A DNA stretch of 64,000 bases from a virus: positions 1 through 64,000 of the IMG/VR virus record IMGVR_UViG_3300021197_001902; one strand, 5' to 3'. Positions 47,432 to 62,495 of the stretch are shown one piece after another (positions within the stretch are counted from its first letter, which is position 1; every line of letters begins with the position of its first letter). The notes beneath the pieces were generated by a model. The model saw nothing but the letters and a program-made list of their open reading frames with translations, was not told the DNA's origin and searched no databases. Position numbers and translations under genes: made by a program.

Positions 47432-48268
47432 TTATGTCTCCTTATTAATAAAGCAATCTTTAATCGCTTCTCTTGAATCTATTGTAGCAGACCAACCGAT
47501 ATTTTTTAATTTGGTCGTATCTGCTTTTGTTGTTTTTACGTCACCCATACGCTCAGGTACGTAAGAGAACTTAACCTGATTGTTCTCTTCTACAATTTGT
47601 TTTATATCATTCAAAGAAATAACGTCGCCCGAACCAACGTCGAACCACTCACCGTTAAAATCTTCATCATAGTTCATACAAAAGACGTTGGCCCTAACAA
47701 TGTCGTCTACATGGACAAAGTCTCTACTCTGTGTTCCGTCTCCGTCTAGTCGTAGCGGCAGACTTTTGTCAATCATCTCCATCCATGCACACACAACTGT
47801 CGAGTAGGACCCACCATATTCTTGGTCTTCGGAGAAAACGTTAAAGTAACGTAAGCAAACTGTGTCCAGTCCATATAATTGTGAATAAAGCTTGCACTCT
47901 TGCTCAGAGATTAGCTTGTGAAGGCCATATGGAGAGTTTGGACCCTCTCCGTCGCCAAGAACCGCGGAAGATGAGCTGAAGATTACTCTTCTTACTCCAT
48001 GGTTTTTGGCCCACTCTAGTAGGACCGATGTAACATAAGCATTATGCCTGAATGTATAACTTGGCTTCTCCACTGAGTAATTCACTCTTGGCAGCGCAGC
48101 CATGTGAAAAACATAATCATAATCGTCATCAGGCAGACAACTAACTATGTCTTCTCCTTCTTTAAGATCAATCCCTCGGATATATGTTTCCGACGAGCAG
48201 TTTTCCTTAAGGCTAGAAAACAGGTGTGAACCAATGTATCCTTTATGGCCCGTGATTAAGATCTTCAT
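47432..48268 (-). CDS. NAD-dependent sugar epimerase/dehydratase (extended SDR, GalE/WbpP-like)
   Basis: ITGHKGYIG, SSS, YGLHK (YxxxK), LRYFNV and GDGTQSRDFVHV; start ATG 48268. Confidence 0.9.
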   Translation of the reverse strand: MKILITGHKGYIGSHLFSSLKENCSSETYIRGIDLKEGEDIVSCLPDDDYDYVFHMAALPRVNYSVEKPSYTFRHNAYVTSVLLEWAKNHGVRRVIFSSSSAVLGDGEGPNSPYGLHKLISEQECKLYSQLYGLDTVCLRYFNVFSEDQEYGGSYSTVVCAWMEMIDKSLPLRLDGDGTQSRDFVHVDDIVRANVFCMNYDEDFNGEWFDVGSGDVISLNDIKQIVEENNQVKFSYVPERMGDVKTTKADTTKLKNIGWSATIDSREAIKDCFINKET

Positions 48269-48269
48269 T

Positions 48270-49244
48270 TTAGAGTTCGTTTTGCCATCTATCAATCATG
48301 TCGTCCAGCAGTGTCGAAAAAGTAAACTCTGGTTTCCACCCTAGGACCTCTCTGGACTTGGTGGAGTCACCCTTGAGGTATTTGAGTTCCTCCGGTCGCA
48401 TATATTTGGGGTTCTGCTCGACATAATCACGATAGTCCATTCCCAACTTAGTGAAAACTGTTTCACACAAGTCTCTAACGGAGTGGGCCTCGCCGGTGGC
48501 AACAATAAATTCATCAGCTACATTGTGATTCGTAATCAAGTGCATAGCTCGAACATAATCTTGGGAGTGTCCCCAGTCACGGTAGGAATCCATATTACCA
48601 AGCTCTAACTTGTCTTGCAGCCCCTTTTTGATAGCTACAGCTCCCTTGACAACCTTGTTGGTGACGAAGTTCGAACCTCTACGCGGTGACTCGTGATTAA
48701 AAAGAATACCGTTGCATGCATGAAGGCCGTAGGCGTGCCTGTAGTGTCTTACAAGATTGTATCCCATAACTTTAGCACAGCCATAGGGACTGACGGGATT
48801 CATGGGCGTTGTGAGCCTCTGGAAGCCATCGTCATCGACGGAGTTGCCAAACATCTCAGAGGAACTAGCCTGATAGAATTTGGCATTCGGACAGATGGTT
48901 CGGTAGACCTCTAGGAGATGCAGCACGCCAAGAGCGTTTGTCTGAATGGTAAAGGAAGGCATATCGAAACTGACACGAACATGACTCATGGCACCAAGGT
49001 TATAAATCTCATCTGGCATTACCTGCGACACGATTCTAACGAGTGAAGGATAGTCCAGAAGGTCTCCATAATAAGCATGAACGTTTTCCCCCAGTCCATA
49101 TTTGTGGAGTCTGTGGTTCTGGTTTTCCGCGACCGAGTGGCGGCGGACAATGCCATGGACTTCATATCCCAACGACAGCAGGTGCTCCGTCAAATAGCTG
49201 CCGTCTTGGCCAGCGATTCCTGTAATCAGTGCTTTCTTCTTCAT
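48270..49244 (-). CDS. gmd: GDP-mannose 4,6-dehydratase
   Basis: ALITGIAGQDGSYL, PDEIYNLGAMSHVRVSF, YQASSSEMFG, GILFNHESPRRG and RDWGH. Confidence 0.96.
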   Translation of the reverse strand: MKKKALITGIAGQDGSYLTEHLLSLGYEVHGIVRRHSVAENQNHRLHKYGLGENVHAYYGDLLDYPSLVRIVSQVMPDEIYNLGAMSHVRVSFDMPSFTIQTNALGVLHLLEVYRTICPNAKFYQASSSEMFGNSVDDDGFQRLTTPMNPVSPYGCAKVMGYNLVRHYRHAYGLHACNGILFNHESPRRGSNFVTNKVVKGAVAIKKGLQDKLELGNMDSYRDWGHSQDYVRAMHLITNHNVADEFIVATGEAHSVRDLCETVFTKLGMDYRDYVEQNPKYMRPEELKYLKGDSTKSREVLGWKPEFTFSTLLDDMIDRWQNEL

Positions 49245-49840
49245 TTCTTAAAAATCTCCAATTTTGTAAGGTCAGGCCAATCTGTAACGACCCATTTGTG
49301 CGGCTTTGTCGCGATGGCTTCTGGAAGCTTCTCTAAACCAGTTGTAGCTACTTCTGGTGTCATATAGTAGTGAAGCCCAAAGGTATCAATGTTTTGCTCT
49401 CTCCACGGCACATCTGGTATTCTACCATCGTATGACATCTTTTTTAATTGTATCGCATCGTTTTCGTCATCTAAAAGAATGACTCCTCCCCGGCCTAGGC
49501 TCAAATGCTTTGCAAACTGAAAACTCACGCACATGAATGTCCCAGGAATATAACTATTCTCTGTCCAGAGCACAGCTGCATCATAGATTGGCTTTGGTTC
49601 ATCGTTTATCTTATAACAGTCTTGCCATGCTTCGTCTCTCCATTCGAGACCTATGTTTAATTTGTTAGCCAAGAACGGAACGGACAGGTATGTTCTTTTT
49701 GGAACATTTATTTTGTCGAGCTTCTGATATCGTATGCAAAGCTCTATGCCGTGTGTGCAGCTGTCCACCGCAACAGCGTATGGACAGCCAAAGAACTCGG
49801 CCAACTGATTTTCAAACTTTCTTACGGGCTCAAAACTCAT
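49241..49840 (-). CDS. Short DegT/DnrJ/EryC1/StrS-family PLP enzyme
   Basis: FE..LA.F.G..YAVAVDSCT, DAA and SFQFAKHL..GRGG; only 199 aa. Confidence 0.8.
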   Translation of the reverse strand: MSFEPVRKFENQLAEFFGCPYAVAVDSCTHGIELCIRYQKLDKINVPKRTYLSVPFLANKLNIGLEWRDEAWQDCYKINDEPKPIYDAAVLWTENSYIPGTFMCVSFQFAKHLSLGRGGVILLDDENDAIQLKKMSYDGRIPDVPWREQNIDTFGLHYYMTPEVATTGLEKLPEAIATKPHKWVVTDWPDLTKLEIFKK

Positions 49841-50670
49841 TTATTTATCAATCCTTTTTCTTCAGCAAATTGCTTAATACCATAATCCCAGTATATCTGA
49901 TCTAGGGTCAGGTCTTTAGCTAAGTTGTAATTCTCTTCCACCACATCCAGCTTGCTATTGTAGTGCTCCTCAGAGACAACGTTATTCAGAATATCTTTCA
50001 GCTCGTCTATTGTCTGAAAGAACAAGGCACCTTCCGTGTTGTAAAAATCGTGGATGTTCGAATCTTCATTGCCCCAGTATATGGGGATGGACCCACAACA
50101 GAATGCATCATTGACCTTTTCACTAGCATAACCACCTTCTTCATTTTCAACCACGATATGGTATCGATAATCTGCTAGGCCTTCTGTTTTTGTTTCAATG
50201 GGATTATACGCTCTGCCATACAAATCCATCAGCTCCGAGCCCTGGAGGGCATTGACAATTTCATGTCGAAGTCGGTGACCTTGAGTATTGTTCTGCGCAG
50301 AAAAGATGGCGGATGTCATCTTAGACTTATCGTATATTTTTCTATCTTCCTTGGGGATCCAAATCTTTGGCCATATTGGATAGTATACAAACTTATCGGA
50401 TGGAGTGGATGCTAGTTGTTTGTTGTGGGTCATGATCAAATCGAAATATGAGTGATTCTGATATACCCACTCGTATACGGGCGCCATAACTGGGTGTGGC
50501 TCAATCAATAGCGCAATCTTATACTTACTATTGTGGCCCGGAGCATGTCCCGTGACCGTATCAACATACACTGCGATGTCTGTCTCACCTTGATCCTTTG
50601 TAAAAAGATCACCATAAACACTCGGGCCCAGTGAGGTTTGGGCCATAAAAACTTTTATATCATACATCAA
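49837..50670 (-). CDS. GT10-like (alpha-1,3/4-fucosyltransferase family) glycosyltransferase
   Basis: YRYHIVVENE..GYASEKV.DAF.CGSIPIYWG. Confidence 0.85.
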   Translation of the reverse strand: MMYDIKVFMAQTSLGPSVYGDLFTKDQGETDIAVYVDTVTGHAPGHNSKYKIALLIEPHPVMAPVYEWVYQNHSYFDLIMTHNKQLASTPSDKFVYYPIWPKIWIPKEDRKIYDKSKMTSAIFSAQNNTQGHRLRHEIVNALQGSELMDLYGRAYNPIETKTEGLADYRYHIVVENEEGGYASEKVNDAFCCGSIPIYWGNEDSNIHDFYNTEGALFFQTIDELKDILNNVVSEEHYNSKLDVVEENYNLAKDLTLDQIYWDYGIKQFAEEKGLINK

Positions 50671-51073
50671 TAAACTCCTTGTCTAGCTCCTGGCCATAAT
50701 ATGGACCGGTCTTATACTCATACACCACTGTATCGTCTTCGAGACAAAGATAGTTGTGGCCACCCCTAAATGAGATGGTGCAATCACCCTGGTTTAGTAC
50801 CTCTTCAGTCAACAACGTCTGGTCAACGTCATACAGGAACACTTTTACAGAACCCTTGACGACAACCCAAGATTCTTGGGTTATGTTAGCAAGCTTCCGA
50901 CATTCAATGTGCTGGTGCGCTTTAAATGTTTTGCCCTCGTTTAAACGAAAGACTGACACTTGTAGAAATTCCTCTTCGGGGCTTAGGTCTGTTCTTTTTT
51001 CCGTAATCTCACCATAGCGGTTGATGGTGTGCATCAGGAGGCCTTCTTCTACTTTTGAAAAGATCTTTTTCAC
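50660..51073 (-). CDS. Cupin-fold protein (WbuC-like)
   Basis: AHQH...QESWVVVKG...GGH...EYKTGPY. Confidence 0.75.
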   Translation of the reverse strand: MKKIFSKVEEGLLMHTINRYGEITEKRTDLSPEEEFLQVSVFRLNEGKTFKAHQHIECRKLANITQESWVVVKGSVKVFLYDVDQTLLTEEVLNQGDCTISFRGGHNYLCLEDDTVVYEYKTGPYYGQELDKEFIDV

Positions 51074-51075
51074 TT

Positions 51076-51768
51076 TTAATCCTCAAATTTGTAACTAAAG
51101 TATTCTACATCATTTTTGAACTTTTGTCCAACCATGTTTCTAAGTTCATCGTCATAAAAGCACTCATATGATGGCATGTTGTCGACATTAAACTCTTTCG
51201 GCGGCAAATCACTGACGTTTATCTTGTTTACTGTCTCAAGTGTCTTATTGGGATTGCGGAAATCTCTTGTCTGAATGCCAAGATGGTCACATACTAGATT
51301 CATTCCGGTAGCATAGTCCTCTAGTTTCACAATCTGATCAAACTTTATGGCACCCAGTTCACTGGTTTGGCTTTGCAGATGTTGTTCCAAGTACTGGTCA
51401 GGTGTGTCGCACACAAAGGTTACCAAATCCCTGAATGTAAAGTCTTCACTATTCATATCCTGGCGTCGGGTGTCTATTGGCCAGGTGGAGTTTTTCCACC
51501 AGACAGCAACTTTCTTGTTTTTGTAATAACTAACAATCCTCTTCCATGGATTTCTACAAACTATGAACTTATAGTAGTCTCTCCAGAATTCTTCCATTTG
51601 ATCGGGGGTAGGCTTCAGTTGTCTCTGCCCCAGAAAAACATGTGGATTTACGGTGGTTGGATCTATCCCTATTGTCTCTAGATACCACCTTTTTACTGCG
51701 GTGCATCCAGCCTTGGCGTTCCAACATACTATGAACTTTTGTTCGTGATTAATTAAAGGAAAAAGCAT
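51076..51768 (-). CDS. Carbohydrate sulfotransferase (Sulfotransfer_2 family)
   Basis: PAPS-binding motifs NAKAGCT and KFIVCRNPWKRIVSYY; H..SQ. Confidence 0.85.
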   Translation of the reverse strand: MLFPLINHEQKFIVCWNAKAGCTAVKRWYLETIGIDPTTVNPHVFLGQRQLKPTPDQMEEFWRDYYKFIVCRNPWKRIVSYYKNKKVAVWWKNSTWPIDTRRQDMNSEDFTFRDLVTFVCDTPDQYLEQHLQSQTSELGAIKFDQIVKLEDYATGMNLVCDHLGIQTRDFRNPNKTLETVNKINVSDLPPKEFNVDNMPSYECFYDDELRNMVGQKFKNDVEYFSYKFED

Positions 51769-51784
51769 CTTGTCTATCTTCTCT

Positions 51785-52255
51785 CTATGCTGTTAGGGCT
51801 GCTGGCACTATGTTGATTCCTGATCTTAAGAGTGCAACCGAGCGATGTAGACCGTCGATTAGCTGACCTTGTTGGTTTATGATAATGTATTTATCTTGGT
51901 GCGGGGAATCTAGATAAGCAGCTGTAGTGTTTAGGATTTTATCGAACTTGTCGAACATGTATTGCATGTCCAAGTGTTCTTCGTTTATCGCTGCTCGGGC
52001 CCAAGTGATATGCTTACACTTTTCTAGATACTCCTCATATGGCTTTATATTTCCCATCGCGTACTGAAAGTGAGGAGTGTCTTTTATTAGGGTTGGCTTC
52101 AAAGAAAGAATTTTCAAATTCTGGCGATCAACTCGATCAACAATCCCATCGCGAATGTGGTTCAAATCAACTTTGACAATTCGATGCGCAACAGAATGGT
52201 AGCCTGGGGGCCACCAGCACTCACCACTCAAAGGATTGGTGGTAATACTTTTCAT
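51785..52255 (-). CDS. ParB/Srx-like domain protein
   Basis: IIINQQGQLIDGLHRS...GI..VP. Confidence 0.5.
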   Translation of the reverse strand: MKSITTNPLSGECWWPPGYHSVAHRIVKVDLNHIRDGIVDRVDRQNLKILSLKPTLIKDTPHFQYAMGNIKPYEEYLEKCKHITWARAAINEEHLDMQYMFDKFDKILNTTAAYLDSPHQDKYIIINQQGQLIDGLHRSVALLRSGINIVPAALTA

Positions 52256-52824
52256 TTTTTCTCACAGACCACATTCAGTGCTAAATGCAGCCCTGACTCA
52301 TCCATGTGTGGAATATAAGCTCTGGAGTAATCATCATAACCTTCTGGTAAGAACTCTCGCCAATCATATCTTTCAACATTTTCGAACCCATTGTCCACAA
52401 GTATTTTTTGGAGGGACGAAAAGTCATAGGCTGTTCTCTGGTAGATCACCTCGTTGAGGCCAACTTCATTGACAATCTCCCAGCGGCCGAACAATGGCCC
52501 TAGAAGGCCCTGAGCGTCGAGATCCTTACCGTTGGTTAAATAGTTCTCTACCATCATCTCAAAGTCCGCCAGAGACGTTCTCAGCAGCCCACCAGGCTTG
52601 AGAACTCGTCGCCATTCGGCCAGAACATCGACAACCTCATATCTATCAAAATAGATAATGACGCCACAGGAGTAGATCTCATCCACACTTTCATCTTCAA
52701 AGGCTGACAGATCCTTGATGTCCATCACCTGATCTACATGATCTAAGTGGTCTTGGTCAATATTAATAAACCCTGGGAGATATCTGTGACCACTTCCTAA
52801 ATGTAATCGGACTTTATCACTCAC
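52252..52824 (-). CDS. SAM-dependent methyltransferase (class I)
   Basis: RLHLGSG, INID, SVDEIY and EWRRVLKPGG. Confidence 0.85.
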   Translation of the reverse strand: MSDKVRLHLGSGHRYLPGFINIDQDHLDHVDQVMDIKDLSAFEDESVDEIYSCGVIIYFDRYEVVDVLAEWRRVLKPGGLLRTSLADFEMMVENYLTNGKDLDAQGLLGPLFGRWEIVNEVGLNEVIYQRTAYDFSSLQKILVDNGFENVERYDWREFLPEGYDDYSRAYIPHMDESGLHLALNVVCEKK

Positions 52825-53236
52825 CTTTTACAGCTCCAATAATGTTTCCGACAATTCTGATCGTATCACTCTCATAATCTGCGCCTCCTCGAAGGCCCTC
52901 GCTGAATACAATAAATTCGTTATCAACGGTGATGTTCAGTGCATGCACCTCGTACGGAGGCGTTGAAAGAATATCACCCTCATTCAGTACTATGCAGGTT
53001 GCATCATCAAGAGAGTCTAGATTGGCGTACCAATACTCCAGAGATCCCTTTGTAATCAACATGTGTTGAGTTGAAACCTCATGGTAGTGGTTTCCTCTAA
53101 CTGCACCAGCGTTAGACCTGATGATGGCAACGTGATCAATGCCACTTTTATAAAAGATGTCGGCAATAATTCCTCGATCATCTTCGTGTCTCTCCAGAGG
53201 AGCTTCGACATCTTCGTAAACGTTTTTCTTTTGCAT
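52817..53236 (-). CDS. Cupin sugar isomerase/epimerase (RmlC/FdtA-like)
   Basis: HEDDRG, VRGNHYH and PPYEVH. Confidence 0.8.
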   Translation of the reverse strand: MQKKNVYEDVEAPLERHEDDRGIIADIFYKSGIDHVAIIRSNAGAVRGNHYHEVSTQHMLITKGSLEYWYANLDSLDDATCIVLNEGDILSTPPYEVHALNITVDNEFIVFSEGLRGGADYESDTIRIVGNIIGAVKGE

Positions 53237-53249
53237 TTATAAATTCTCC

Positions 53250-54473
53250 CTAAAAATCACTAAAAACTAAAAACTTAATCTTAGGATTTATTTCATTCAA
53301 TTTCTGTTTAATTTTGTCAGAGATATTCCATGACAAGATTATTGCATACACCTCATCGTATTCAGAAAATACCTCGTCTCCGCGGATAGGAATACTTGTT
53401 AACGGAGTGAGTTTGCCCTGCTTGTACTCTGACGCGTCAGTTACATAATCAATTATCGAATTGTCTAAGTTCAGTAAGGTCAAGAAGGTATTCCCCTTCG
53501 CTGCGGCTCCAACAGCGACCAAGGAGCCGCCTTCGGCCTTAATTTCATAAATCCTCTTCAAGAAATTAAACTTTGACTCTTGCAGTCGATTTGTTAAGTT
53601 CTCGTATGTGCTTAGATTATAGAGGCCAATGCGGTCCTCTTCTTCAATCATGGTATTCACAAGCTCTGATTCTGCGGCGCCGGTCTTCTGAGCGTATACT
53701 CGCAGGGAACCTCCATGATAATCAACCACCTGAACATCTACTATAACCATGCCTGCACGGCGGAGCATCTCTCGGGCGGCCTTAACAGTTAGGTATGTAA
53801 CGTGTTCGTGGTAGACCTGATCGATCTTCTCAGATTCAATGGAACATTTCCAGTAGGGAGCTTCAAATACGAAGGTACCGTCATCAGTCAATAAGGTAGA
53901 GGCTGCTTTGGCAAAGTCAACAGGATCCTCTGAGTGATTAAAAACATTGTTCGCCACTACTAAGTCAGCACTACCATAATCTGTTAAAACAAGCTCGGCA
54001 ATTTGACTATCAAAAACTGCAACCTTAGTTTCTACACCATTTACAGTCTGTGCAATCTGAGAAACATGAGGTGAGGCGTCAACGCCAAGAGTCCTAGCGG
54101 AACGGTCGTCCTTAAACTGTTTGAGAAGGAACCCATCATTAGAACCAACCTCAACCACGAAAGCGTCTTCTGATAAGGATACATTGTCAGACACCTCTAA
54201 ACAAAAGTTGATCCAATGTCTTTTAGAGGTATTGGAGTTAGAAGATGTGTAAGAATATTCGTACAGAGACGCATAACGATCATGAGGCTCCGTTTTAGAT
54301 AATGTCTGTACATTTCCACATGACTCGCAAAGTACGCATGAAAGGTTGTACGTCACCAGCGGGTCGTACTTTTTGTCCATAGGGACAAATGTGTCAGCAT
54401 ATGCGTGGGCCCCTAAATCTAGGATACACTCCATTTTAGTAGATTGGCATACAAGGCAGTGATTTCTTCTCAA
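53250..54473 (-). CDS. NDP-hexose C-methyltransferase (zinc-binding N-terminus)
   Basis: CLVC...CESC, VEVGSNDG, YHEH, HGGS and GAAAKG. Confidence 0.88.
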   Translation of the reverse strand: MRRNHCLVCQSTKMECILDLGAHAYADTFVPMDKKYDPLVTYNLSCVLCESCGNVQTLSKTEPHDRYASLYEYSYTSSNSNTSKRHWINFCLEVSDNVSLSEDAFVVEVGSNDGFLLKQFKDDRSARTLGVDASPHVSQIAQTVNGVETKVAVFDSQIAELVLTDYGSADLVVANNVFNHSEDPVDFAKAASTLLTDDGTFVFEAPYWKCSIESEKIDQVYHEHVTYLTVKAAREMLRRAGMVIVDVQVVDYHGGSLRVYAQKTGAAESELVNTMIEEEDRIGLYNLSTYENLTNRLQESKFNFLKRIYEIKAEGGSLVAVGAAAKGNTFLTLLNLDNSIIDYVTDASEYKQGKLTPLTSIPIRGDEVFSEYDEVYAIILSWNISDKIKQKLNEINPKIKFLVFSDF

Positions 54474-56112: not shown

Positions 56113-56132
56113 ATTCCTAAACCTTTGTATTC

Positions 56133-56161
56133 ATTTTACAGCATGAACAAATATTTTACAG
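56133..56161 (-). promoter_or_regulatory. Intergenic 9-bp direct repeat CTGTAAAAT, 20-bp period
   Basis: ATTTTACAG on + at 56133-56141 and 56153-56161; each copy contains a -10-like TAAAAT on the coding strand. Confidence 0.35.
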
Positions 56162-56162
56162 A

Positions 56163-56897
56163 CTAATCAACAAATAAGTTTGCCAAATCTTCATACTTTT
56201 CGTCCTGCAGGAAGGTCTCGAAGATAGGATCAACAACTATTCTATCGTCCTTGAGATACATATTGTGTTTAAAGTATTTAAAGGCGCTGTCTGGATCGTG
56301 TCTATCGGGGCCGTCATATTCAAGATTGATAAAATCTTGTTTTCTCTTCTCAGTCCATTGGCAATTATAACCATCATAATACCCTTGCCCACCCTCCAAG
56401 CCTGCACTACGGTAAAAATCAATGCCAACTATATAAAGTTCCTTCAAATCTGACGATAATAAGTCGATTATGGCAGAGAATCCCGTGTTGGGTCTGGAAT
56501 TGGTTGACGTCTTAATCTGCCAGTAGGGATCCTCTGGGAGTGTAACTGTAGTGAAATAGGGCACTGTTCTTAGTGCGTCGACATTGCGTGCCATACGTTC
56601 TTCAAAGAACCACTCATTTTTTGGATAAGATGAGGACAAGTATTTGACTCTGTTCCTAACACATGTTTGTGCCATTATGTGAGGAGGGTCATCGAGAGTG
56701 GCATATACCACATCGGTCCTGCTACCCAGATATTTCTGGTATTCCTTTTCGACTTCTAGCATGTTGTTAAGTCGCACCACGACATCGCATGCCTCTATTT
56801 TTGCACCGTTCTCTTGCATAGTTGCTGTCTTTGATGGACCAACAACTGCAACAGTCTTATTCTCTAGAAATTTCTTATACTGCATTTCTCTAGACAT
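56163..56897 (-). CDS. GT29-like (sialyltransferase family) glycosyltransferase
   Basis: Sialylmotif L-like VAVVGPS...IEACDVVVRLN...GSRTD; S-like PNTGF...GIDFY; H-D-x3 VS-like segment. Confidence 0.75.
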   Translation of the reverse strand: MSREMQYKKFLENKTVAVVGPSKTATMQENGAKIEACDVVVRLNNMLEVEKEYQKYLGSRTDVVYATLDDPPHIMAQTCVRNRVKYLSSSYPKNEWFFEERMARNVDALRTVPYFTTVTLPEDPYWQIKTSTNSRPNTGFSAIIDLLSSDLKELYIVGIDFYRSAGLEGGQGYYDGYNCQWTEKRKQDFINLEYDGPDRHDPDSAFKYFKHNMYLKDDRIVVDPIFETFLQDEKYEDLANLFVD

Positions 56898-57591
56898 CGA
56901 CTTTTCTTATCTCCTCTTCGTCTTTAGCCACAGTAGTAATAATTCTATCATCACTAAATTGATCAATCCACGGGAAGTGCGCATCTGTTGGGTAACAATA
57001 TCTGGGATCTAGGACGAGTGTTGGTGGAAACTGTTTTAGCTGGCGATTCCAGTGGGACTCGTCGTGCCACACCGCCATAACGCTGTTTTTATCATCAGTA
57101 TCTATTCTTTCCTTCATTAGACGGGCCGCTTCCAAGTAAAACTCTGTGCGGCCTCCTTGAACTCCTCCACAGTAATACGGATGATACATCTGTGGCGGGA
57201 CATAAGCAGTCGAGGTTCCGCGGCGTTCAAAGGTACCATCACTTCTTCTGTAGAAGCCAGGGTGTTCGCAGGCCACAATATCAGACACTATCTCTTCGCC
57301 TATAGGTTTTTCTATGTTTAGGTCGACATCTAAGTAAAATAAGAAATCATAATCTTTCAAGACTTCTTCGGCCAACAGAAAATAGTGATATCTATACAAG
57401 GTGTCTCCGGGGAAGCCCTTTCTTTCTATTTGATATTTCTTGACGTTTTCGCCGAACTCCTTATCGCTGTCGGTAAAAAGAAAAATATCTACATCATGGT
57501 CTATCATGAAGTTCTTGTTTAGACTCTTGTGGAGGTTTTCTGCTAGCTCAACGTAGCCCCCGGTCGCGACGTTTAAAACTGCTACTTTCAT
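56890..57591 (-). CDS. GT6 (ABO/alpha-1,3-Gal(NAc) transferase family) glycosyltransferase
   Basis: ATG.Y, FTD, LYRY, LDVD, HPGF, FERR, YYCGGVQGG and AVWHDESHWNR; ATGA overlap at 57588-57591. Confidence 0.92.
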   Translation of the reverse strand: MKVAVLNVATGGYVELAENLHKSLNKNFMIDHDVDIFLFTDSDKEFGENVKKYQIERKGFPGDTLYRYHYFLLAEEVLKDYDFLFYLDVDLNIEKPIGEEIVSDIVACEHPGFYRRSDGTFERRGTSTAYVPPQMYHPYYCGGVQGGRTEFYLEAARLMKERIDTDDKNSVMAVWHDESHWNRQLKQFPPTLVLDPRYCYPTDAHFPWIDQFSDDRIITTVAKDEEEIRKVDV

Positions 57592-58400
57592 CCCATTATC
57601 TCCCAAGTTGGTGGAATTATCTCGTGATCCTCAAGGTGAGCGTTCTTTTCGCCGTACCACCTTCTCGGAGCGACTACTCTCTTGTTTTCATTCTGATTCA
57701 ACCAGGCGCCCCAAAATGAAAATGTGGAGTTGCCAATAATATTATCATTAAGCAATGACATAAAGTACAAGTCTATGACGTCTGTCTCGCCCTCAATAAA
57801 TTTAACATTCTCAGCTTTGTCACTGAAATTAAGCTTACACCATTCAATATCATCGCTGAAGAATACAAAGGTGGAGGTTGTGTCGAAGGTGGCCATTGCA
57901 TTGATATAGTACTCTGGCTTCTGTGAATAGTGATACTGGCTAAGTCTAGGCGTCAGGAAGTCTCCTCGCCTAACGTGGACAGCCACTGTGTTGTTGAGCG
58001 CTAGAATGTCAGAATACTTAGATTCGATGTGTTCTTTAATCTCCACCGGGATCGAGAAGGTCTCTAGAATCAAGTCTCTCCGGTGTTCAAAGTACGCGTA
58101 TGATTGAAAATATCCATCCAGGCATAAATTGGGCGCATATGGGAGTTTTTGGTGTTTCCAGCTGCGTTCTGAGTACAGATGCTTGGAAAACGATTTATCA
58201 CCTTCAATATTCAAATTTCTAAATATTGTATCCACGTATGGGCCAAACCACTCTCTGTTTTGTAGATCGGGGAAGACGGCCTCGTCGTTATTATCCGCTG
58301 CATGCGCAAGGGTAGCCGCAATTGTAAATATCTGATTACCTAAACCAGCAAGATAATGTCCGTCAATCTTGCTAGGACCTTTAACGTGACATGTTATCAT
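57588..58400 (-). CDS. GT11 alpha-1,2-fucosyltransferase family
   Basis: GLGNQIF, GYFQS, HVRRGD, FSDDIEW and NSTFSFWGAWL. Confidence 0.93.
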   Translation of the reverse strand: MITCHVKGPSKIDGHYLAGLGNQIFTIAATLAHAADNNDEAVFPDLQNREWFGPYVDTIFRNLNIEGDKSFSKHLYSERSWKHQKLPYAPNLCLDGYFQSYAYFEHRRDLILETFSIPVEIKEHIESKYSDILALNNTVAVHVRRGDFLTPRLSQYHYSQKPEYYINAMATFDTTSTFVFFSDDIEWCKLNFSDKAENVKFIEGETDVIDLYFMSLLNDNIIGNSTFSFWGAWLNQNENKRVVAPRRWYGEKNAHLEDHEIIPPTWEIMG

Positions 58401-59155
58401 TTGTTCTCCAGTTTATTATATTTGGCTTTAGATCTTATCTCAGCCTCCAGCCTCAATTGAAGCTGATGGTTTGTTTTGTGATCGTTTAGTGGATTGGATA
58501 AGTTATAGACATACAACATTTTCTCTATATAACGACTCTTTTCGGCGGCGCACATTTCAAGCATTGGGAACATAAAGGATAAATCCCAGGCCATTCTATA
58601 AAAGTTACCCTCAGTATCTTTCAGGTCTGAAGTTTCTATCTTTGCCCACAAGTGGTATTTAAAGGTTCTGAGGTGTGACGAGTACCATTCACTAACCCTG
58701 TAAGCATTATTCTGCATTACAGATGCTGGAATTTGTCGAGCAAACTTTCCTCTAGTTCCTGCTGGATATTCAATATAGCTACCATACGTTAGCCAACAAT
58801 CTTCGCGATTGTAAAAATCATTCAAATAAGATAGGACTCCAGCCGACGAGAGCCAATCATCGCCGTCAAGAGTAACGATAATATCCTCTGGTTGGGGGTC
58901 TGCTTCAAGAATACCTTCATAGATATTTCTAAGGGCAAACTTCTTTTCTTGGTTTCTAACAAGAATAAACCGGTCATCGCCGGCTATTTCTTTCTCGATG
59001 ATTTGCGCTGTCTGGTCCGTTGAAATATCATCTACCAATACGCATGTAAAGTTACTATAATCCTGTTTTTTTACAGATCTTAAATTAAACTTAATCCAAT
59101 CTTGCACATTATAGAATGGAACAACAACAATAAATCGATTTTGCTCAGAGTTCAC
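58397..59155 (-). CDS. GT2 glycosyltransferase
   Basis: VVVPFYN, SVKKQ.Y, LVDD.STD and LDGDDW. Confidence 0.9.
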   Translation of the reverse strand: MNSEQNRFIVVVPFYNVQDWIKFNLRSVKKQDYSNFTCVLVDDISTDQTAQIIEKEIAGDDRFILVRNQEKKFALRNIYEGILEADPQPEDIIVTLDGDDWLSSAGVLSYLNDFYNREDCWLTYGSYIEYPAGTRGKFARQIPASVMQNNAYRVSEWYSSHLRTFKYHLWAKIETSDLKDTEGNFYRMAWDLSFMFPMLEMCAAEKSRYIEKMLYVYNLSNPLNDHKTNHQLQLRLEAEIRSKAKYNKLENK

Positions 59156-59984
59156 CGGTCACCTCCAATATAGTGTCTACTATCTCGTCTCTTTTGTTAG
59201 TCATGTGATCAATTAATTCTTCACCCTTAAGCGAAAACCATGGCTCACTACGGGCCCCAACTAGTTTGTTTAGTACAACACTCATATTCATCATGCGCGC
59301 TTCAACACAAACTCTGGAAAGTGTCTCCGGTGTTTGTGGGAAGAAAACAAATTTCTTGTTCTTACCAAGTTTGTTAAGGAAAGTCAGATACTCCCTATCA
59401 GACACCAACTGATACTTCTCGTTCTTAGCCACACAATAGCGAATTGCGTCTTTAGTGTTTTTATGTGGGATATTAGAGGCCATAACGGCCACGAAATCAT
59501 TTTTTTCTTGGCCGGCAATCGTTCGCATGTGTTCTAGGGACTTCAAGTCCCACATGTTGCCACCTAGGTTTATTAGGTTGTCGAGGCGAGTATTCTTCTG
59601 GACTATGTCAAAATGAAACTTGGACTGACATAGCACTCCTAGGGCGTTCTGGTATAGCTCTAAATTGACAACGTCATCTTCCGGGGCAAGAAAGTCTGCA
59701 TACAGTGCCGGATTTCTTCTTCTCAAATATTTGTGGTCATGCTCGTAGATCACATATTTATGATCTTTCATGCTTTTCAAAGTTTTTGGAGGTAGATTTA
59801 AAAAATTAGACACCACATAACACGTGTCTTGTGTAAGATTAGCCGTGCTAAGTAGATGGCTATGAATCCTCGATGTGGAGTAACCTCTGTTCTCAAGCTG
59901 ATTTTTTACCTCGTAATCGTTAAGCTCGCCGCCTCCGACCAGCTGATCCACGAAAACATCAGCCACAAACGTGTAGTCACTCAT
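59145..59984 (-). CDS. GT-B fold glycosyltransferase (GT4-like, divergent)
   Basis: GGGEL N-terminal loop; FVFFP..PETLSRVCVEA (Ex7E); start ATG 59984. Confidence 0.65.
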   Translation of the reverse strand: MSDYTFVADVFVDQLVGGGELNDYEVKNQLENRGYSTSRIHSHLLSTANLTQDTCYVVSNFLNLPPKTLKSMKDHKYVIYEHDHKYLRRRNPALYADFLAPEDDVVNLELYQNALGVLCQSKFHFDIVQKNTRLDNLINLGGNMWDLKSLEHMRTIAGQEKNDFVAVMASNIPHKNTKDAIRYCVAKNEKYQLVSDREYLTFLNKLGKNKKFVFFPQTPETLSRVCVEARMMNMSVVLNKLVGARSEPWFSLKGEELIDHMTNKRDEIVDTILEVTGEL

Positions 59985-61245
59985 ATTCCTCAATGCCGTC
60001 TTGCAAATCAACAAGCCAGTTATTCATCTCTTCTGCATCGGCATTTGTAAACTCGACAGCTTCGATAAAATCGTTATAGATCTTTTCATCTGTAAAGTTT
60101 GCCAAAACATGATTCATAAGAGTTGTTGCTTCTTTCTTCCAGTGCGTCTCTTTTTCCAGGCACTCATCTAGAGCCCTCTTGAAAGAAGCCTCCTTTGCAA
60201 AGGCCCAACTTGAATCTTTCTGAATGATGCCGTCCCAGACAGCTTCTTGCTGCACTGGCAGTACATCGTAGTCAACCTTCAGAACGCGCGGGACTTGCTT
60301 GCCCTTTTTGTTTGGCTTTGTAATAAAGTCCATTTGGCCAGACCAAGTTGTTGTGATGAGAGGAAGCCCATTATAAACAGCCTCAAACATAGGAAGACCA
60401 TAGCCTTCGCCATGGCCAATGTTAATCAACGCCTTCATTGTGGGATGTTGGTAGAGCCACGTAAGTGCTCCAGGCTCCATCTCACCGTGAATTAGGTATA
60501 TGGAGCACTTCTTGTCCCCAAGCGTGTTTAGAATGGCTTCCATGCGCTTCTGAGTGTATATTCTATCCATAACAGAATCCGAGGCCATGTTGGTCTTGAT
60601 AACGAGCCCGACATCTTCACGATCTCTAAAGTTATCAACGAACCACCTGATTGTATTGTCTAAATTCTTTCGGGGGCCCCACTGGGACACAGCCAGGAAG
60701 TTTTCAGTTGTCTTGAAGTTAATGTCAACTTCAACGGGTTCGGAGGTGCGCACTGGGTAATTGACAGCATCAATCGGGACGGTCACGCCCCAGTTATCTA
60801 TCTTATTGCCGTTACCATCTTGAATGTTGTAAGTTGTCTGTTCAAATACTCGCTTAGAATGATTTGATACAACAACAACTTTATCAACACAGGTATTCGT
60901 CTTTTCAATCCATTGGGGTGATACTTTGGTAGTCTCGATGCCCGCAGTATAACCGATGTTAATTGGACATAACTTCTCAAACTCGTTTGGAACTGTGACT
61001 TGTAGAGATACCTCAAAGGTGCCTCCACTTTGAGTGTGGACGGACGTTTTAAGGAGTGTTTGCTGGATCCATTGCGTTTCTTCAGAAGTATCTGAAATCT
61101 GGCCCGTCCTCCCCCAGGCCGTATTGATCATATAAATATCATACAAATCTGGTCGTGATCGAAGCGCTCTAAGAGCAAATCTAGACTGTTCTCCGTATCC
61201 GGATCGTGATAGGAGAGGCCCTTTAACTAAAATTCTTTTCAACAT
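59977..61245 (-). CDS. GT4 glycosyltransferase
   Basis: SGYG, PRKN and GEGYGLPMFEA...GLPLI. Confidence 0.88.
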   Translation of the reverse strand: MLKRILVKGPLLSRSGYGEQSRFALRALRSRPDLYDIYMINTAWGRTGQISDTSEETQWIQQTLLKTSVHTQSGGTFEVSLQVTVPNEFEKLCPINIGYTAGIETTKVSPQWIEKTNTCVDKVVVVSNHSKRVFEQTTYNIQDGNGNKIDNWGVTVPIDAVNYPVRTSEPVEVDINFKTTENFLAVSQWGPRKNLDNTIRWFVDNFRDREDVGLVIKTNMASDSVMDRIYTQKRMEAILNTLGDKKCSIYLIHGEMEPGALTWLYQHPTMKALINIGHGEGYGLPMFEAVYNGLPLITTTWSGQMDFITKPNKKGKQVPRVLKVDYDVLPVQQEAVWDGIIQKDSSWAFAKEASFKRALDECLEKETHWKKEATTLMNHVLANFTDEKIYNDFIEAVEFTNADAEEMNNWLVDLQDGIEEYE

Positions 61246-62495
61246 TAAAATACCTTTACTTCATAAGAACTATAATTTTTACGATCGTCCCAGGAACCCT
61301 TCTCATCACAAATCGAAGTGAAAAGATCATCCCATCTTTGAACGTAATCATCAAAATTAAACTGCTTCTGGGTCCAGGCTCGGCCCTTAGCTCCCAGCTC
61401 AATGCGTTGATCGCGGGTCATCTCATACATTTTAACCAAAGCGTCAACAAATACTTCCTCACTAAGCCGGTCCTCATAAATAAAGGGAACCTGCTGAGAT
61501 CCAATAACAGCCTTTGAGACTGGCTGGAGACCTAGGCCAAAGAATTCTTCACCGTCCGTCACTTGGTCTTGAAGGCCACCTGTCATATTAACAATGATCG
61601 GTGTACCGCAAGAAAGAGATTCTAAAGTTGACAGACCAAAACCCTCTGCATCTGAGATACAGCAGGTTACGTCAGACATATTGTACATAATGGCTAGATC
61701 TTTTGAATCCACCTTCTGACGAGAGAACATTACTTCCCCGTTGGTTAGCCCAAGCTCGTTAATAATCGCCTCTAGATCTTGGCCGTGCACATCTTTAGTG
61801 TCTGTATGCATGATCAGAGTGGCGTTTTCGGGCCCGACTTTGTCAAGGAAGCCTTTGAACCACCAAATCAAACTACCGGAAAGCTTACGGCGGGCATTAC
61901 GGCTATTCCAGAAAATAACAAATTTGTCATTAAGACCTTTTTCTTTTCTCCATTGAATGATTTGCTCGTCATCGTATGGAGTGAAAACATCAGCATCAAC
62001 TGCGTGTGGGATATATGATGAATCCGTGTTTGGTGCTACTGTCTGGACAATGTCATGAGTAAGTTTTGAGATGCATGCAACGTGATCATTTGATTGATAA
62101 AAAGGGCTGTTGAAACTTGGGTAGGGATAGTTATCCCACACATGATAATAGACCATAGGGACATGAGGTCGAATTTCGTTCTCGATGGCCCAGAGCCAGT
62201 CATAAAAACGGGGGTCTGTCATAAACCATAAGATATCAGGCTTCTGCTGCTGAATCATGGCTCTAACCATGTCTTGATTTCCATAACCGTCAACAGGCCA
62301 AATAACCCAGTCTTCCCCCCACTGCTCGGTTCTCTGAGGCTCATGTTTGGGGTGTTTAATAGCACCTCCAAAGGAAACAAACTGGTATTTACCCGTCTTT
62401 AGCATTCCTTCGATCATATATTTTGTTTGTGTTCCGACACCACTCGGAGATAGCGGATGGTCGCTAATGGTAAAGATCTTAATCTTATCTGACAT
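61245..62495 (-). CDS. GT4 glycosyltransferase
   Basis: SGVG, IPHAVD, RNARRK and EGFGLSTLESLSCGTPII. Confidence 0.9.
   Translation of the reverse strand: MSDKIKIFTISDHPLSPSGVGTQTKYMIEGMLKTGKYQFVSFGGAIKHPKHEPQRTEQWGEDWVIWPVDGYGNQDMVRAMIQQQKPDILWFMTDPRFYDWLWAIENEIRPHVPMVYYHVWDNYPYPSFNSPFYQSNDHVACISKLTHDIVQTVAPNTDSSYIPHAVDADVFTPYDDEQIIQWRKEKGLNDKFVIFWNSRNARRKLSGSLIWWFKGFLDKVGPENATLIMHTDTKDVHGQDLEAIINELGLTNGEVMFSRQKVDSKDLAIMYNMSDVTCCISDAEGFGLSTLESLSCGTPIIVNMTGGLQDQVTDGEEFFGLGLQPVSKAVIGSQQVPFIYEDRLSEEVFVDALVKMYEMTRDQRIELGAKGRAWTQKQFNFDDYVQRWDDLFTSICDEKGSWDDRKNYSSYEVKVF

Follow-up and report, generated by a model that had tools for sequence, protein, structure and literature searches.

The window analysed here, a stretch of 64,000 nucleotides, comes from the record of an uncultured marine T4-like phage (90.7 kb, estimated at about 48% complete). 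Between positions 47432 and 62495 of the minus strand lies a single run of 19 genes for sugar-making and sugar-transferring enzymes. Neighbouring genes overlap or are spaced by 16 nt at most, with a single exception, a gap of 50 nt. This island is listed below with its two backbone flanks, from upstream to downstream.

62504-63286, minus: PD-(D/E)XK exonuclease, upstream backbone flank (Pfam 46.5 bits; phrog_69)
61245-62495, minus: GT4a, GT-B glycosyltransferase, first island gene and conserved anchor (Glycos_transf_1 51.9 bits, cut-off 26.4)
59977-61245, minus: GT4b, second GT-B-like glycosyltransferase, partner of GT4a (GT4-conflict 20.5 and Glycos_transf_1 19.9 bits, sub-cut-off)
59145-60014, minus: 289-aa virus-specific protein, probable glycosyltransferase or accessory domain
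58397-59155, minus: GT2 (GT-A) glycosyltransferase (Glycos_transf_2 74.8 bits)
57588-58400, minus: GT11 alpha-1,2-fucosyltransferase-like (Pfam 86 bits; HVRRGDF motif)
56890-57606, minus: GT6, blood-group A/B transferase family (Pfam 108 bits; NF041524 172 bits)
56163-56897, minus: GT29-like sialyltransferase-fold enzyme (PF00777 25.1 bits, cut-off 23)
56113-56162, minus: sole intergenic gap, 50 nt, containing two copies of CTGTAAAAT
55132-56112, minus: fusion of SIS (GmhA/KdsD-like sugar-phosphate isomerase) and capless HAD phosphatase (AF2 model)
54470-55135, minus: NeuA-like CMP-ulosonic (nonulosonic) acid synthetase-like cytidylyltransferase (CTP_transf_3 56.8 bits)
53250-54473, minus: NDP-sugar C-methyltransferase, TylC3 type, zinc-binding N-terminus (Methyltransf_14 125.9, Methyltransf_13 40.7 bits)
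52817-53236, minus: 139-aa cupin, WbcJ C-terminal type (Polysacc_synt_C 31.4 bits; Cupin_2)
52252-52824, minus: class I SAM methyltransferase (Methyltransf_11 36.4 bits)
51785-52255, minus: 156-aa island protein, conserved (91% identity in L004, 70% in L005)
51076-51768, minus: Sulfotransfer_2 carbohydrate sulfotransferase-like (Pfam 63 bits)
50660-51073, minus: WbuC-family cupin (TIGR04366 38.7 bits, cut-off 42)
49837-50670, minus: GT10-like alpha-1,3/4-fucosyltransferase-like (Pfam 28.2 bits, cut-off 23.9)
49241-49840, minus: 199-aa mini-DegT, shortened PLP sugar aminotransferase/dehydratase fold (DegT_DnrJ_EryC1 52.6 bits, two pieces)
48270-49244, minus: GDP-mannose 4,6-dehydratase, Gmd (Pfam 377 bits; TIGR01472 362, cut-off 415)
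47432-48295, minus: GalE/WbpP/WbgU-type NDP-hexose 4-epimerase (Epimerase 154 bits)
45810-46496, minus: gp55-like late sigma factor, downstream backbone flank (phrog_234 27.9 bits)

Pfam and profile searches confirmed the gene families named in the initial annotation, along with their coordinates, strand and order. Of its three GT4-type enzymes, GT4a is clear, GT4b is weak and the 289-aa protein is assigned by inference. The SIS-HAD fusion (55132-56112), the two cupins, the mini-DegT and the 156-aa ORF had gone unlisted. All island enzymes are soluble and without a membrane helix, as that annotation had also held: their highest 19-residue hydrophobic window is at most 1.28 on the Kyte-Doolittle scale, where a membrane helix lies at about 1.6. 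The whole gene set is syntenic in two further viral contigs (L004 and L005), with amino-acid identities of 79-96% in one and 46-86% in the other, and the genes are under strong purifying selection (dN/dS of 0.02-0.11 for the 14 with unsaturated synonymous sites). Because synteny is complete in both contigs and dN/dS is this low, the island is not a chance grouping.

The island occupies a defined slot in the phage backbone, whose order is PD-(D/E)XK nuclease, GT4 pair, island, gp55-like late sigma factor and virion genes. At least 590 viral contigs carry relatives of GT4a; among solved structures, its nearest relative is the chlorovirus glycosyltransferase B736L (1.6e-18). The nuclease gene lies within 1.5 kb upstream of GT4a in 73 of 74 loci, and GT4b adjoins GT4a in 79 of 80. 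Every GT4a found in a prokaryote genome collection was on a MAG contig with incoherent taxonomy, and nearly all of those extending past the gene carry the same phage synteny; the pair is phage-specific. Cultured phages share the slot (Flavobacterium phage immuto, Microcystis phage Mel-JY01 and Rhodothermus phage RM378), and the hosts of phages with the pair include Bacteroidota, Rhodothermus and Cyanobacteria. In 23 loci with no island in the slot, gp55 follows GT4b after 0.3-0.8 kb; in 43 others the two genes are over 8 kb apart. Contig 3300025132_007241 (L024, L160) is a near relative: its backbone and core genes are 60-97% identical, and it is without the GT11, GT6, GT29-like, C-methyltransferase and sulfotransferase genes, while a 100%-complete relative of 191 kb (G001) keeps the whole set. 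The island fills a recombination hot spot in the backbone of a large aquatic T4-like myovirus lineage.

Downstream of the pair, the 289-aa protein has no match in Pfam or NCBIfam. Viral sequences make up 88-100% of its atlas neighbour clusters (95-96% of the closest ones), some with Glycos_transf_1 and some fused to GT2, and from these neighbours it is probably a glycosyltransferase or an accessory domain; against L004 its dN is 0.114, with synonymous sites saturated. The GT6 enzyme carries the motifs DVD, YYCGGVQGG and WHDESHWN, is 37% identical to the GT6 of P-SSM2 and belongs to a minimal, DxD-bearing phage clade (PMC3516806). The order GT11 then GT6, read in the initial annotation as assembly order, agrees with what A/B-type GT6 enzymes are known to require of their acceptor (PMC3516806). 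For the GT29-like enzyme, a profile of 16 sequences (A2) matched only sialyltransferases in the PDB (1.9e-6), and the top Foldseek matches of its AF2 model (pLDDT 91) are all GT29/GT42 sialyltransferases (ST8Sia3, ST6Gal1, CstII, ST3Gal1), so that the earlier GT29-like call is independently confirmed, with a true sialyltransferase fold. Its donor is probably a CMP-ulosonic acid, which may be Kdo-, Kdn-, Pse- or Leg-like instead of sialic acid. A natural fusion of GT6 and GT29-like domains in relatives (P0229) supports a shared acceptor glycan for the two. The GT10-like enzyme carries the motif VEN..GYASEK (HIVVENEEGGYASEK).

The remaining genes concern sugar supply and modification. In the SIS-HAD model (pLDDT 82), residues 1-178 align with GmhA 1x92 (Z 19.6) and residues 211-326 with 2obb (Z 11.8; both VIA-align), and homologues number more than 448 in metagenomes and are present in more than 510 viral contigs. 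The cytidylyltransferase, whose nearest PDB relatives are NeuA enzymes, scores 71.8 bits against PseF, under its cut-off, and in 40 of 80 loci it accompanies the SIS-HAD gene, mostly as a direct neighbour. The epimerase likely supplies UDP-Gal or UDP-GalNAc, to judge from its top PDB matches (UDP-Glc and UDP-GlcNAc 4-epimerases); no GDP-fucose synthase is among its best 60 PDB matches, and its orthologues occur without gmd in other loci. The WbuC cupin accompanies mini-DegT and gmd in other loci, and mini-DegT keeps its length within one residue in L004 and L005 (dN/dS 0.04). The 139-aa cupin is a probable sugar isomerase or epimerase; together with the WbuC cupin, the C-methyltransferase and mini-DegT, it indicates rare sugars of bacterial type. 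Family searches gave no match for the 156-aa protein, and Sulfotransfer_2 was matched in just 2 of 50,697 deposited phage records. Both the record and the complete relative miss the ulosonate synthase step, with no NeuB-type sialic-acid synthase found in either, and the record has no recognisable GDP-fucose synthase, so the predicted sugars depend on the host. With these gaps and the bacterial-type rare-sugar enzymes, the earlier description of an 'animal-like' capped glycan is overstated.

From these genes we infer a phage-borne cytoplasmic glycan assembly line, as follows. The GT4a and GT4b pair would start the chain, which the 289-aa protein and GT2 would extend. GT11 would then place an alpha-1,2-fucose onto a galactose, GT6 (of DxD type, with Gly at the A-transferase position) would add GalNAc or Gal to the fucosylated galactose, and the GT29-like enzyme would add an acidic 8- or 9-carbon ulosonic sugar, with the SIS-HAD fusion giving the precursor and the NeuA-like cytidylyltransferase activating it. 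Finishing steps may include GT10-like fucosylation, sulfation, O-methylation and a C-methyl-branched 6-deoxy sugar derived from the Gmd product, while the 4-epimerase would be the source of UDP-Gal or UDP-GalNAc. Left to the host would be the primary nucleotide sugars, PAPS and the ulosonate synthase reaction, and probably GDP-fucose synthase as well.

As the acceptor of this glycan we tentatively favour a phage-encoded protein, probably on the virion. The support is indirect: the GT4 pair is phage-specific and kept across host phyla, it lies beside the late sigma factor and virion genes, and searches for the known pathways to DNA bases that can be glycosylated found none. If so, phage strains would each differ in their surface glycan through the island's variable part. 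Against this reading, no candidate acceptor has a conspicuous Ser/Thr-rich, mucin-like composition, the virion proteins being only moderately rich in Ser/Thr (16-21% against a median of 11%). Nor do late promoters speak for it: the motif CTATTTA stands upstream of PhoH and of baseplate genes alike and does not occur between island genes.

It is possible, if somewhat unlikely, that the soluble transferases instead hijack a host undecaprenyl-pyrophosphate-linked intermediate, e.g. one primed by WecA, with host Wzx, Wzy and WaaL flipping, polymerising and ligating the altered O-antigen or capsule unit. Such a change of the host surface would block superinfecting phages or keep progeny off debris. 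The genomic picture would look the same: O-antigen transferases likewise are without membrane helices and act on undecaprenyl-linked intermediates, matching the island enzymes. Against a phage-protein acceptor, moreover, all island families are typical of bacterial O-antigen/capsule loci, with GT11, GT6, GT2, Gmd, the WbuC cupin, DegT and the C-methyltransferase being classic families of such clusters, and the hypervariable island content could follow hypervariable host O-antigens. Host O-chain modification is also the published reading for similar islands in pelagimyophages and cyanomyophages (PMC7029224, PMC12801897). However, the phage-specific GT4 pair is kept in phages whose hosts (Bacteroidota, Rhodothermus, Cyanobacteria) have different envelope glycans, and the phage GT6 clade is without the membrane-binding domain found in bacterial GT6 enzymes (PMC3516806). 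The absence of a flippase, polymerase and priming transferase, noted in the initial annotation for the island, extends to the whole 90.7-kb record and to the complete relative. The latter has no Gtr-type, Wzx, Wzy or priming enzyme, no membrane protein resembling a flippase, polymerase or priming transferase, and no polytopic membrane ORF (every ORF has at most four hydrophobic segments). Some 15 kb out of about 190 kb, or about 8% of the genome, would also be a heavy cost for a lytic phage to bear for a change of the host surface.

Other conceivable targets are host proteins (pili, flagella, the S-layer, phage receptors), or the product could be an oligo- or polysaccharide, free or secreted, made during infection. 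We regard these options as improbable. Soluble enzymes without carrier machinery would suit them, and sialyltransferase-fold enzymes related to Maf proteins, which glycosylate bacterial flagellins, offer a precedent. Nothing specific supports these targets, however, and a phage-specific core conserved over very different hosts speaks against a host-specific protein.

Phage DNA is an unlikely acceptor, and glycosylation of a modified base by the GT-B pair and downstream enzymes, to evade restriction, seems highly improbable to us. T4 provides the precedent in its DNA glucosylation, and the position of the GT pair between a nuclease and a gp55 homologue recalls that of the T4 alpha-glucosyltransferase, which lies between gene 47 and gene 55. 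The island has SIS-HAD, cytidylyltransferase and GT-B enzymes, and phage sets of HAD-like, cytidylyltransferase and GT-B enzymes put heptose or Kdo on 5hmC, with DNA glycans reaching at most trihexose (bioRxiv 10.1101/2023.12.21.572611). The island's eight to nine transferases, including the oligosaccharide-acceptor GT11 and GT6, and its sulfotransferase go far past that. GT4a, moreover, gave no match to the T4 enzyme at E 1e-8, and no ThyA-type hydroxymethylase, C5-methyltransferase, TGT/DpdA or Tet/JBP was found in the record or the complete relative, the Tet search being without a positive control.

The earlier emphasis on the full set is fair as regards this combination of families; large glycan islands in marine T4-like phages have already been published (PMC7029224, PMC12801897). 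What is new here is the island as the filling of a hot spot in a conserved backbone, in a slot common to hundreds of related phages.

The window covers the first 64 kb of a 90.7-kb record that CheckV rates as about 48% complete, and its genes include those for an SbcCD-like nuclease, a portal, a baseplate wedge and a large terminase. This terminase shares 46% identity with the enzymes of Flavobacterium phage vB_FspM_immuto (immuto) and Microcystis phage Mel-JY01, against about 33% with those of cyanomyophages. From this gene set and these identities, the source is a fragment of a roughly 190-kb T4-like myovirus of an uncultured marine lineage. In the SbcCD-like nuclease, a single 1050-aa ORF (8347-11499, minus strand) joins an SbcD-like nuclease (residues 1-370) and an SbcC-like ATPase (residues 326-1049), the T4 counterparts of which (genes 47 and 46) are separate. 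A DDAH/arginine-deiminase-like protein (62 bits) is encoded upstream of the sugar island, at 66399-67187 of the record on the minus strand. The island consists of 19 minus-strand ORFs between 62495 and 47432, with families taken from Pfam and NCBIfam.

Genes of the sugar island, with bit scores against family models
61245-62495, minus strand: GT4a, Glycos_transf_1, 51.9 bits
59977-61245, minus strand: GT4b, GT4 matches, all sub-threshold
59145-60014, minus strand: 289-aa ORF, no Pfam or NCBIfam match
58397-59155, minus strand: GT2, 74.8 bits
57588-58400, minus strand: GT11, 86 bits
56890-57606, minus strand: GT6, 108 bits
56163-56897, minus strand: GT29-like protein, PF00777, 25.1 bits, cut-off 23
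55132-56112, minus strand: 326-aa ORF (SIS-HAD fusion), no Pfam or NCBIfam match
54470-55135, minus strand: CTP_transf_3 cytidylyltransferase, 56.8 bits
53250-54473, minus strand: TylC3-type sugar C-methyltransferase, Methyltransf_14, 125.9 bits
52817-53236, minus strand: cupin, Polysacc_synt_C, 31.4 bits
52252-52824, minus strand: SAM methyltransferase, Methyltransf_11, 36.4 bits
51785-52255, minus strand: 156-aa ORF, no family match
51076-51768, minus strand: Sulfotransfer_2, 63 bits
50660-51073, minus strand: WbuC-type cupin, 38.7 bits, below the cut-off of 42
49837-50670, minus strand: GT10-like protein, 28.2 bits, cut-off 23.9
49241-49840, minus strand: 199-aa DegT-fold protein (mini-DegT), 52.6 bits in two pieces
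48270-49244, minus strand: Gmd, 377 bits
47432-48295, minus strand: GalE-type SDR, 154 bits

Adjacent genes overlap or lie at most 16 nt apart across the whole island, with the sole exception of a 50-nt gap at 56113-56162, and a hydropathy scan found no hydrophobic 19-mer above 1.28 in any of the encoded proteins. The sequence motifs match the family assignments, and the gene list of the initial annotation is therefore right apart from two corrections: every family that it named is present, yet only one of its three GT4-type enzymes is a clear member, and it omitted the SIS-HAD fusion, the two cupins, mini-DegT and the 156-aa ORF. At the nucleotide level, the island has no match in 50,697 deposited phage records.

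The GT29-like protein reaches 25.1 bits against PF00777 (gathering threshold 23), the match covering residues 14-68 only. An alignment of 16 phage homologues contains a block resembling sialyl motif L, an RPNTG block resembling motif S and an invariant His, and among solved structures its profile finds nothing but sialyltransferases (ST3Gal1 at 1.9e-6, then ST6Gal1, ST8Sia3, ST6GalNAc2 and CstII). The segment K.VA.VGP....G..ID..D.VVR.N aligns to motif L of ST3Gal1, ST6Gal1 and ST8Sia3 with E from 1.9e-6 to 1.5e-4, and RPNTG..A..DLL and H200, both picked out by eye, are candidates for motif S/VS and the catalytic His. The AF2 model (pLDDT 91, pTM 0.91) adopts the GT-A variant 2 sialyltransferase fold, and about the top 30 Foldseek matches are GT29 and GT42 sialyltransferases together with one from Pasteurella (TM 0.40-0.56). 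No Cys is invariant in the alignment, so that the conserved cysteines of the motif L/S disulfide are absent, and the protein has no hydrophobic segment or type II membrane topology. Because it lacks the motif cysteines and the membrane anchor, we call it GT29-like rather than a canonical member, and its donor may be a CMP-ulosonic acid other than CMP-sialic acid. At least 338 metagenome proteins match the profile, and for almost every one of the 120 listed a PF00777 assignment is precomputed; the 50,697 deposited phage records contain no match to the protein. Two metagenome clusters (P0229 and P0241, 473 aa) are fusions of GT6 and GT29-like domains. In P0229, residues 1-230 are 58% identical to the island GT6 and residues 232-473 are 60% identical to the GT29-like protein, the same order as that of the two overlapping genes, which argues for one shared glycan. 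Other proteins of about 440 aa, such as P0131, fuse the GT29-like domain to a PF21729 domain, which we take to be of the sugar methyltransferase type from one JGI annotation (TIGR01627 family).

GT11 scores 86 bits (Pfam cut-off 23.9) and contains HVRRGDF, the HxRRxD GDP-fucose motif, and GT6 scores 108 bits (cut-off 25) and contains DVD as its DxD, WHDESHWN as its HDESH region, and YYCGGVQGG. A clade of minimal, DxD-type phage GT6 enzymes that includes the cyanophage P-SSM2 enzyme and many marine metagenome relatives has been described (PMC3516806), and by its sequence the island GT6, 37% identical to that of P-SSM2, belongs to it. Enzymes of the A/B type need a Fuc-alpha-1,2-Gal acceptor (PMC3516806), which fits the gene order GT11 then GT6. 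The GT10-like protein passes its Pfam cut-off marginally (28.2 against 23.9), with HIVVENEEGGYASEK matching the FxxxFEN...YxTEK motif. Among the remaining enzymes, GT4a has the chlorovirus glycosyltransferase B736L as its closest solved relative, the 289-aa ORF belongs to a virus-specific family with neighbours that are partly Glycos_transf_1-positive or fused to GT2, and the Sulfotransfer_2 enzyme is matched in just two of the 50,697 deposited phage records.

The cytidylyltransferase scores 56.8 bits against CTP_transf_3 (cut-off 22.6), 71.8 against PseF (cut-off 205.7) and about 35 against KdsB, and its closest PDB relatives are NeuA enzymes, not KdsB; these scores place it, as a prediction, within the CMP-nonulosonate synthetase family (NeuA/PseF/LegF). 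In the model of the SIS-HAD fusion, an SIS isomerase domain of the GmhA/KdsD kind (VIA-align Z 19.6 to 1x92) precedes a small HAD phosphatase that has no cap (Z 11.8 to 2obb), a fold on which we reject it as the missing NeuB- or KdsA-type synthase. Its family is very common in marine viruses, with over 448 clusters among metagenome proteins and over 510 contigs of viruses. The fusion is without a Pfam family, the name 'phosphoheptose isomerase' is given to it or its HAD half by JGI and PHROGs, and it is 76% identical in the complete relative IMGVR_UViG_3300029787_000001, above most of the surrounding transferases. In a check for a heptose/Kdo route, the best structural match of the fusion was GmhA but its partner cytidylyltransferase was NeuA-like. 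Past the window end, at 65504-66022 of the record (minus strand) and directly upstream of PhoH, lies a gene for a 172-aa HldE-domain-II/TagD-like cytidylyltransferase (PF01467, 48.9 bits), which together with the SIS-HAD fusion could form a heptose pathway.

The SDR at 47432-48295 is closest to UDP-Glc and UDP-GlcNAc 4-epimerases, none of its 60 best solved relatives is a GDP-fucose synthase, and it has orthologues in loci without gmd. A role as GDP-fucose synthase is rejected on these grounds, and the most probable role of the enzyme is to provide UDP-Gal or UDP-GalNAc, donors of the type that GT6 uses. Mini-DegT retains an N-terminal LegC-like piece and the central PLP region, but compared with normal DegT enzymes it is short of about 100 residues internally and about 120 at the C-terminus; it is not a pseudogene, since its length is constant within one residue in relatives and its dN/dS is 0.04. 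In four other phage loci (L028, L101, L178 and L182), mini-DegT, the WbuC cupin and gmd move as a module. Searches of the record and of the complete relative returned no NeuB-type synthase, and for Fcl/GMER the record gave sub-threshold cross-matches only (the epimerase at 71 and Gmd at 19.7 bits, against a cut-off of 500), so the predicted fucose and ulosonic acid need host or unrecognised enzymes. As the C-methyltransferase, the cupins and mini-DegT cluster around gmd, the product would appear to be a mixed glycan that contains rare sugars of bacterial type, and not a copy of an animal glycan. The 'animal-like' glycan proposed in the initial annotation is thus an overstatement, given that no NeuB and, in the record, no Fcl was recognised and that bacterial-type rare-sugar enzymes are present.

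All 19 genes and their flanks are syntenic in IMGVR_UViG_3300030109_005543 (79-96% amino acid identity) and in the complete relative (191 kb, 100% complete; 46-86%), and dN/dS against the former is 0.02-0.11 for each gene without saturated synonymous sites, mini-DegT included. Two further contigs (L026 and L027) carry 14 of the island genes, in partly different order. Searches of viral contigs with the SIS-HAD fusion and with GT4a revealed a fixed backbone that starts with the PD-(D/E)XK nuclease, GT4a and GT4b and continues, beyond a variable stretch, with a small zinc-ribbon ORF, the gp55-like late sigma factor (assigned by phrog_234) and virion genes. GT4a has relatives in at least 590 viral contigs. 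Among the best 80 loci, GT4b adjoins GT4a in 79, and the nuclease lies at most 1.5 kb upstream in 73 of 74. The spacing between GT4b and gp55 falls into groups: 23 loci have 0.3-0.8 kb, six have 4.7-8.4 kb, and 43 have more than 8 kb, gp55 lying beyond the range covered; in the source phage it is 13.5 kb. In the near relative IMGVR_UViG_3300025132_007241 (loci L024 and L160), backbone and core genes are 60-97% identical (nuclease 78%, GT4a 70%, GT4b 60%, SIS-HAD fusion 96-97%, CMP-synthetase 82%, gp55 86%), yet the sugar genes between GT4b and gp55 differ from those of the island, and the available stretches have no match to GT11, GT6, the GT29-like protein, the C-methyltransferase or the sulfotransferase. 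Variable content is therefore swapped between close relatives.

Cellular homologues of GT4a were considered and set aside. In a prokaryote genome collection, GT4a occurs on MAG contigs only (L117-L158), labelled Pelagibacter, Woesearchaeota, Pacearchaeota, Flavobacteriales, WOR-3, Saccharibacteria, Halobacteriovorax and others, and nearly all that reach past the gene show the phage synteny nuclease-GT4a-GT4b. These contigs are thus probably phage DNA mis-binned into MAGs, and the GT4a family is phage-specific. One such contig sits inside a 2.8-Mb 'chromosome' (CP070664.1).

Scans for promoters and terminators yielded nothing usable on timing. The T4 late-promoter word TATAAATA shows no enrichment, with 4 occurrences where 2.75 are expected, GTATTTAG occurs once, and sigma-70-like sites are not above chance. 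The word CTATTTA stands about 25 nt before many gene starts in the record and in its complete relative, and is uninformative because it precedes both PhoH and baseplate genes, the baseplate wedge among them, and does not occur between island genes. In the complete relative, GTTACATTA occurs 24 times against 1.5 expected, nearly always on one strand and before small genes, at 40-55 kb. Terminator-like sites number 25 against 15.0 in shuffles (sd 3.3), and did not define transcription units.

What the island decorates has to be judged from gene content and context. We give phage (virion) proteins a little less than an even chance of being the acceptor. An acceptor intrinsic to the phage would agree with a phage-specific GT4 pair that is kept across phages of different host phyla, the envelope glycans of which differ, and with the solubility of all island enzymes, the position of the island against the late sigma factor and virion module, and the chlorovirus B736L as nearest solved relative of GT4a. 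The phage GT6 clade likewise lacks the membrane-binding domain of bacterial GT6 enzymes (PMC3516806). A search for a Ser/Thr-rich acceptor protein returned nothing specific, the virion proteins being only moderately Ser/Thr-rich. A rival is decoration of a host envelope glycan: the transferases of O-antigen and capsule loci are also without membrane helices, every island family is typical of such loci, and priming, flipping and ligation could come from the host. It is also the published reading of the pelagimyophage and cyanomyophage islands (PMC7029224; PMC12801897). In a screen by hydropathy alone, ORFs have at most four hydrophobic segments in the complete relative and at most three in the record; by this screen the complete genome therefore encodes no Wzx-, Wzy-, WecA- or Gtr-like protein. 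The earlier observation that flippase, polymerase, priming transferase and membrane anchors are missing holds for the island, and for the first three it extends to the record and the complete relative. We regard a host envelope acceptor as the likeliest rival, at well below even odds. DNA is a highly improbable target: phage sets of HAD, cytidylyltransferase and GT-B enzymes can place heptose or Kdo on 5hmC (bioRxiv 10.1101/2023.12.21.572611), but no ThyA-type hydroxymethylase, C5-methyltransferase, Tet/JBP or TGT was found in the record or the complete relative (PF00303, PF00145 and PF12851 are absent from both, the PF12851 search having had no positive control), and the set of transferases far exceeds the needs of any known DNA glycan. 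Other targets are improbable, and a very small part of the odds is assigned to no target.

With virion proteins as the favoured acceptor, we tentatively propose, at somewhat worse than even chances, that a very large aquatic T4-like phage lineage (at least 590 contigs, with hosts from Bacteroidota to Cyanobacteria) has intrinsic protein glycosylation. The GT4 pair would prime virion proteins, and the swappable island downstream would add a cap specific to each strain, amounting to a viral 'O-antigen'. In the source phage this cap would end in GalNAc and carry fucose, ulosonic acid, sulfate and methyl groups, and would thereby be similar to histo-blood-group and sialyl epitopes.

The role of the big 'LPS-like' clusters in marine T4-like phages has been a question since the first cyanomyophage genomes, the usual answer being a change of the host O-antigen, with no test in the literature examined. 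Large glycan islands in these phages have already been published, as has the DxD-type GT6 of P-SSM2 and its marine metagenome relatives (PMC3516806). In the literature searched we found no account of a conserved slot that follows a GT4 pair specific to phages, of how broadly the GT29-like family is spread in marine viruses, of the GT6 and GT29-like fusions, or of the particular combination with a sulfotransferase and C-methyl sugar branch. The source island is among the richest versions of clusters that occupy a fixed slot behind this pair, and ocean viruses widely carry a family with the sialyltransferase fold, at times joined to a GT6 enzyme of blood-group type. If the virion is the target, phage particles in the sea bear diverse, strain-specific glycan coats, with consequences for adsorption, grazing, particle stickiness and carbon export. 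Since the GT4 pair occurs in cultured immuto and Mel-JY01, and GT4a in Rhodothermus phage RM378, the idea can be tested at the bench on existing isolates.

The closest published counterparts are the 'LPS' islands of Prochlorococcus phage P-SSM2, S-SCSM2R and the pelagimyophages, likewise large T4-like marine phages with many soluble transferases and NDP-sugar enzymes in a hypervariable region near tail or virion genes; function is putative in every case, that of the source island included. The island of Synechococcus phage S-SCSM2R holds 13 glycosyltransferases, GT10 and GT11 among them, plus kdsA/kdsB (PMC12801897), and the host-recognition clusters of pelagimyophages are comparable marine glycan islands (PMC7029224). 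The source phage differs in lineage (terminase 33% identical to those of cyanomyophages), in the slot, where a phage-specific GT4 pair lies between the PD-(D/E)XK nuclease and gp55, and in adding the GT29-like protein, sulfotransferase, SIS-HAD fusion and C-methyltransferase. Syntenic glycosyltransferase loci are found in immuto (NC_055915, 48008-59988) and Mel-JY01 (PP395634, 81375-89690), where the nuclease, a GT4a homologue (30-33% identity) and a GT4b homologue are followed by more sugar genes; their variable parts hold WecE-type aminotransferases, a mannosyltransferase and a 'pilin glycosylation protein', and no GT11, GT6 or GT29-like gene. For RM378 the comparison covers its GT4a homologue (28% identity).

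Blood-group-mimicking O-antigen enzymes of bacteria share the adjoining GT11 and GT6, which also form a pair in E. coli O86, and the HDESH region at the catalytic site of GT6. In contrast to bacterial GT6 enzymes such as BoGT6a of Bacteroides ovatus (PMC3516806), the phage GT6 has DxD rather than NxN and no C-terminal membrane-binding domain, and unlike bacterial O-antigen loci the island has no Wzx, Wzy or priming enzyme nearby. With eukaryotic GT29 and bacterial GT42 enzymes, the GT29-like protein shares the fold and the motif-L-like segment, with the motif-S-like RPNTG and the invariant His as candidate further likenesses, and a CMP-sugar synthetase is encoded two genes downstream; it differs in its length of 244 aa, in lacking a membrane anchor or stem and the motif cysteines, and in the absence of a sialic-acid synthase. 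Chloroviruses and mimiviruses encode the glycosylation of their own capsids or fibrils. Virion glycosylation in mycobacteriophages Che8, Corndog and Myrna, which involves one to four transferase genes, is attributed to Freeman et al. 2023 in later papers (cited in PMC12619734 and PMC12801897). The source phage, known from its genes alone, is likened to these viruses by gene content: in all of them soluble, virus-encoded transferases occur with no lipid-carrier or export machinery, and their content varies among relatives.
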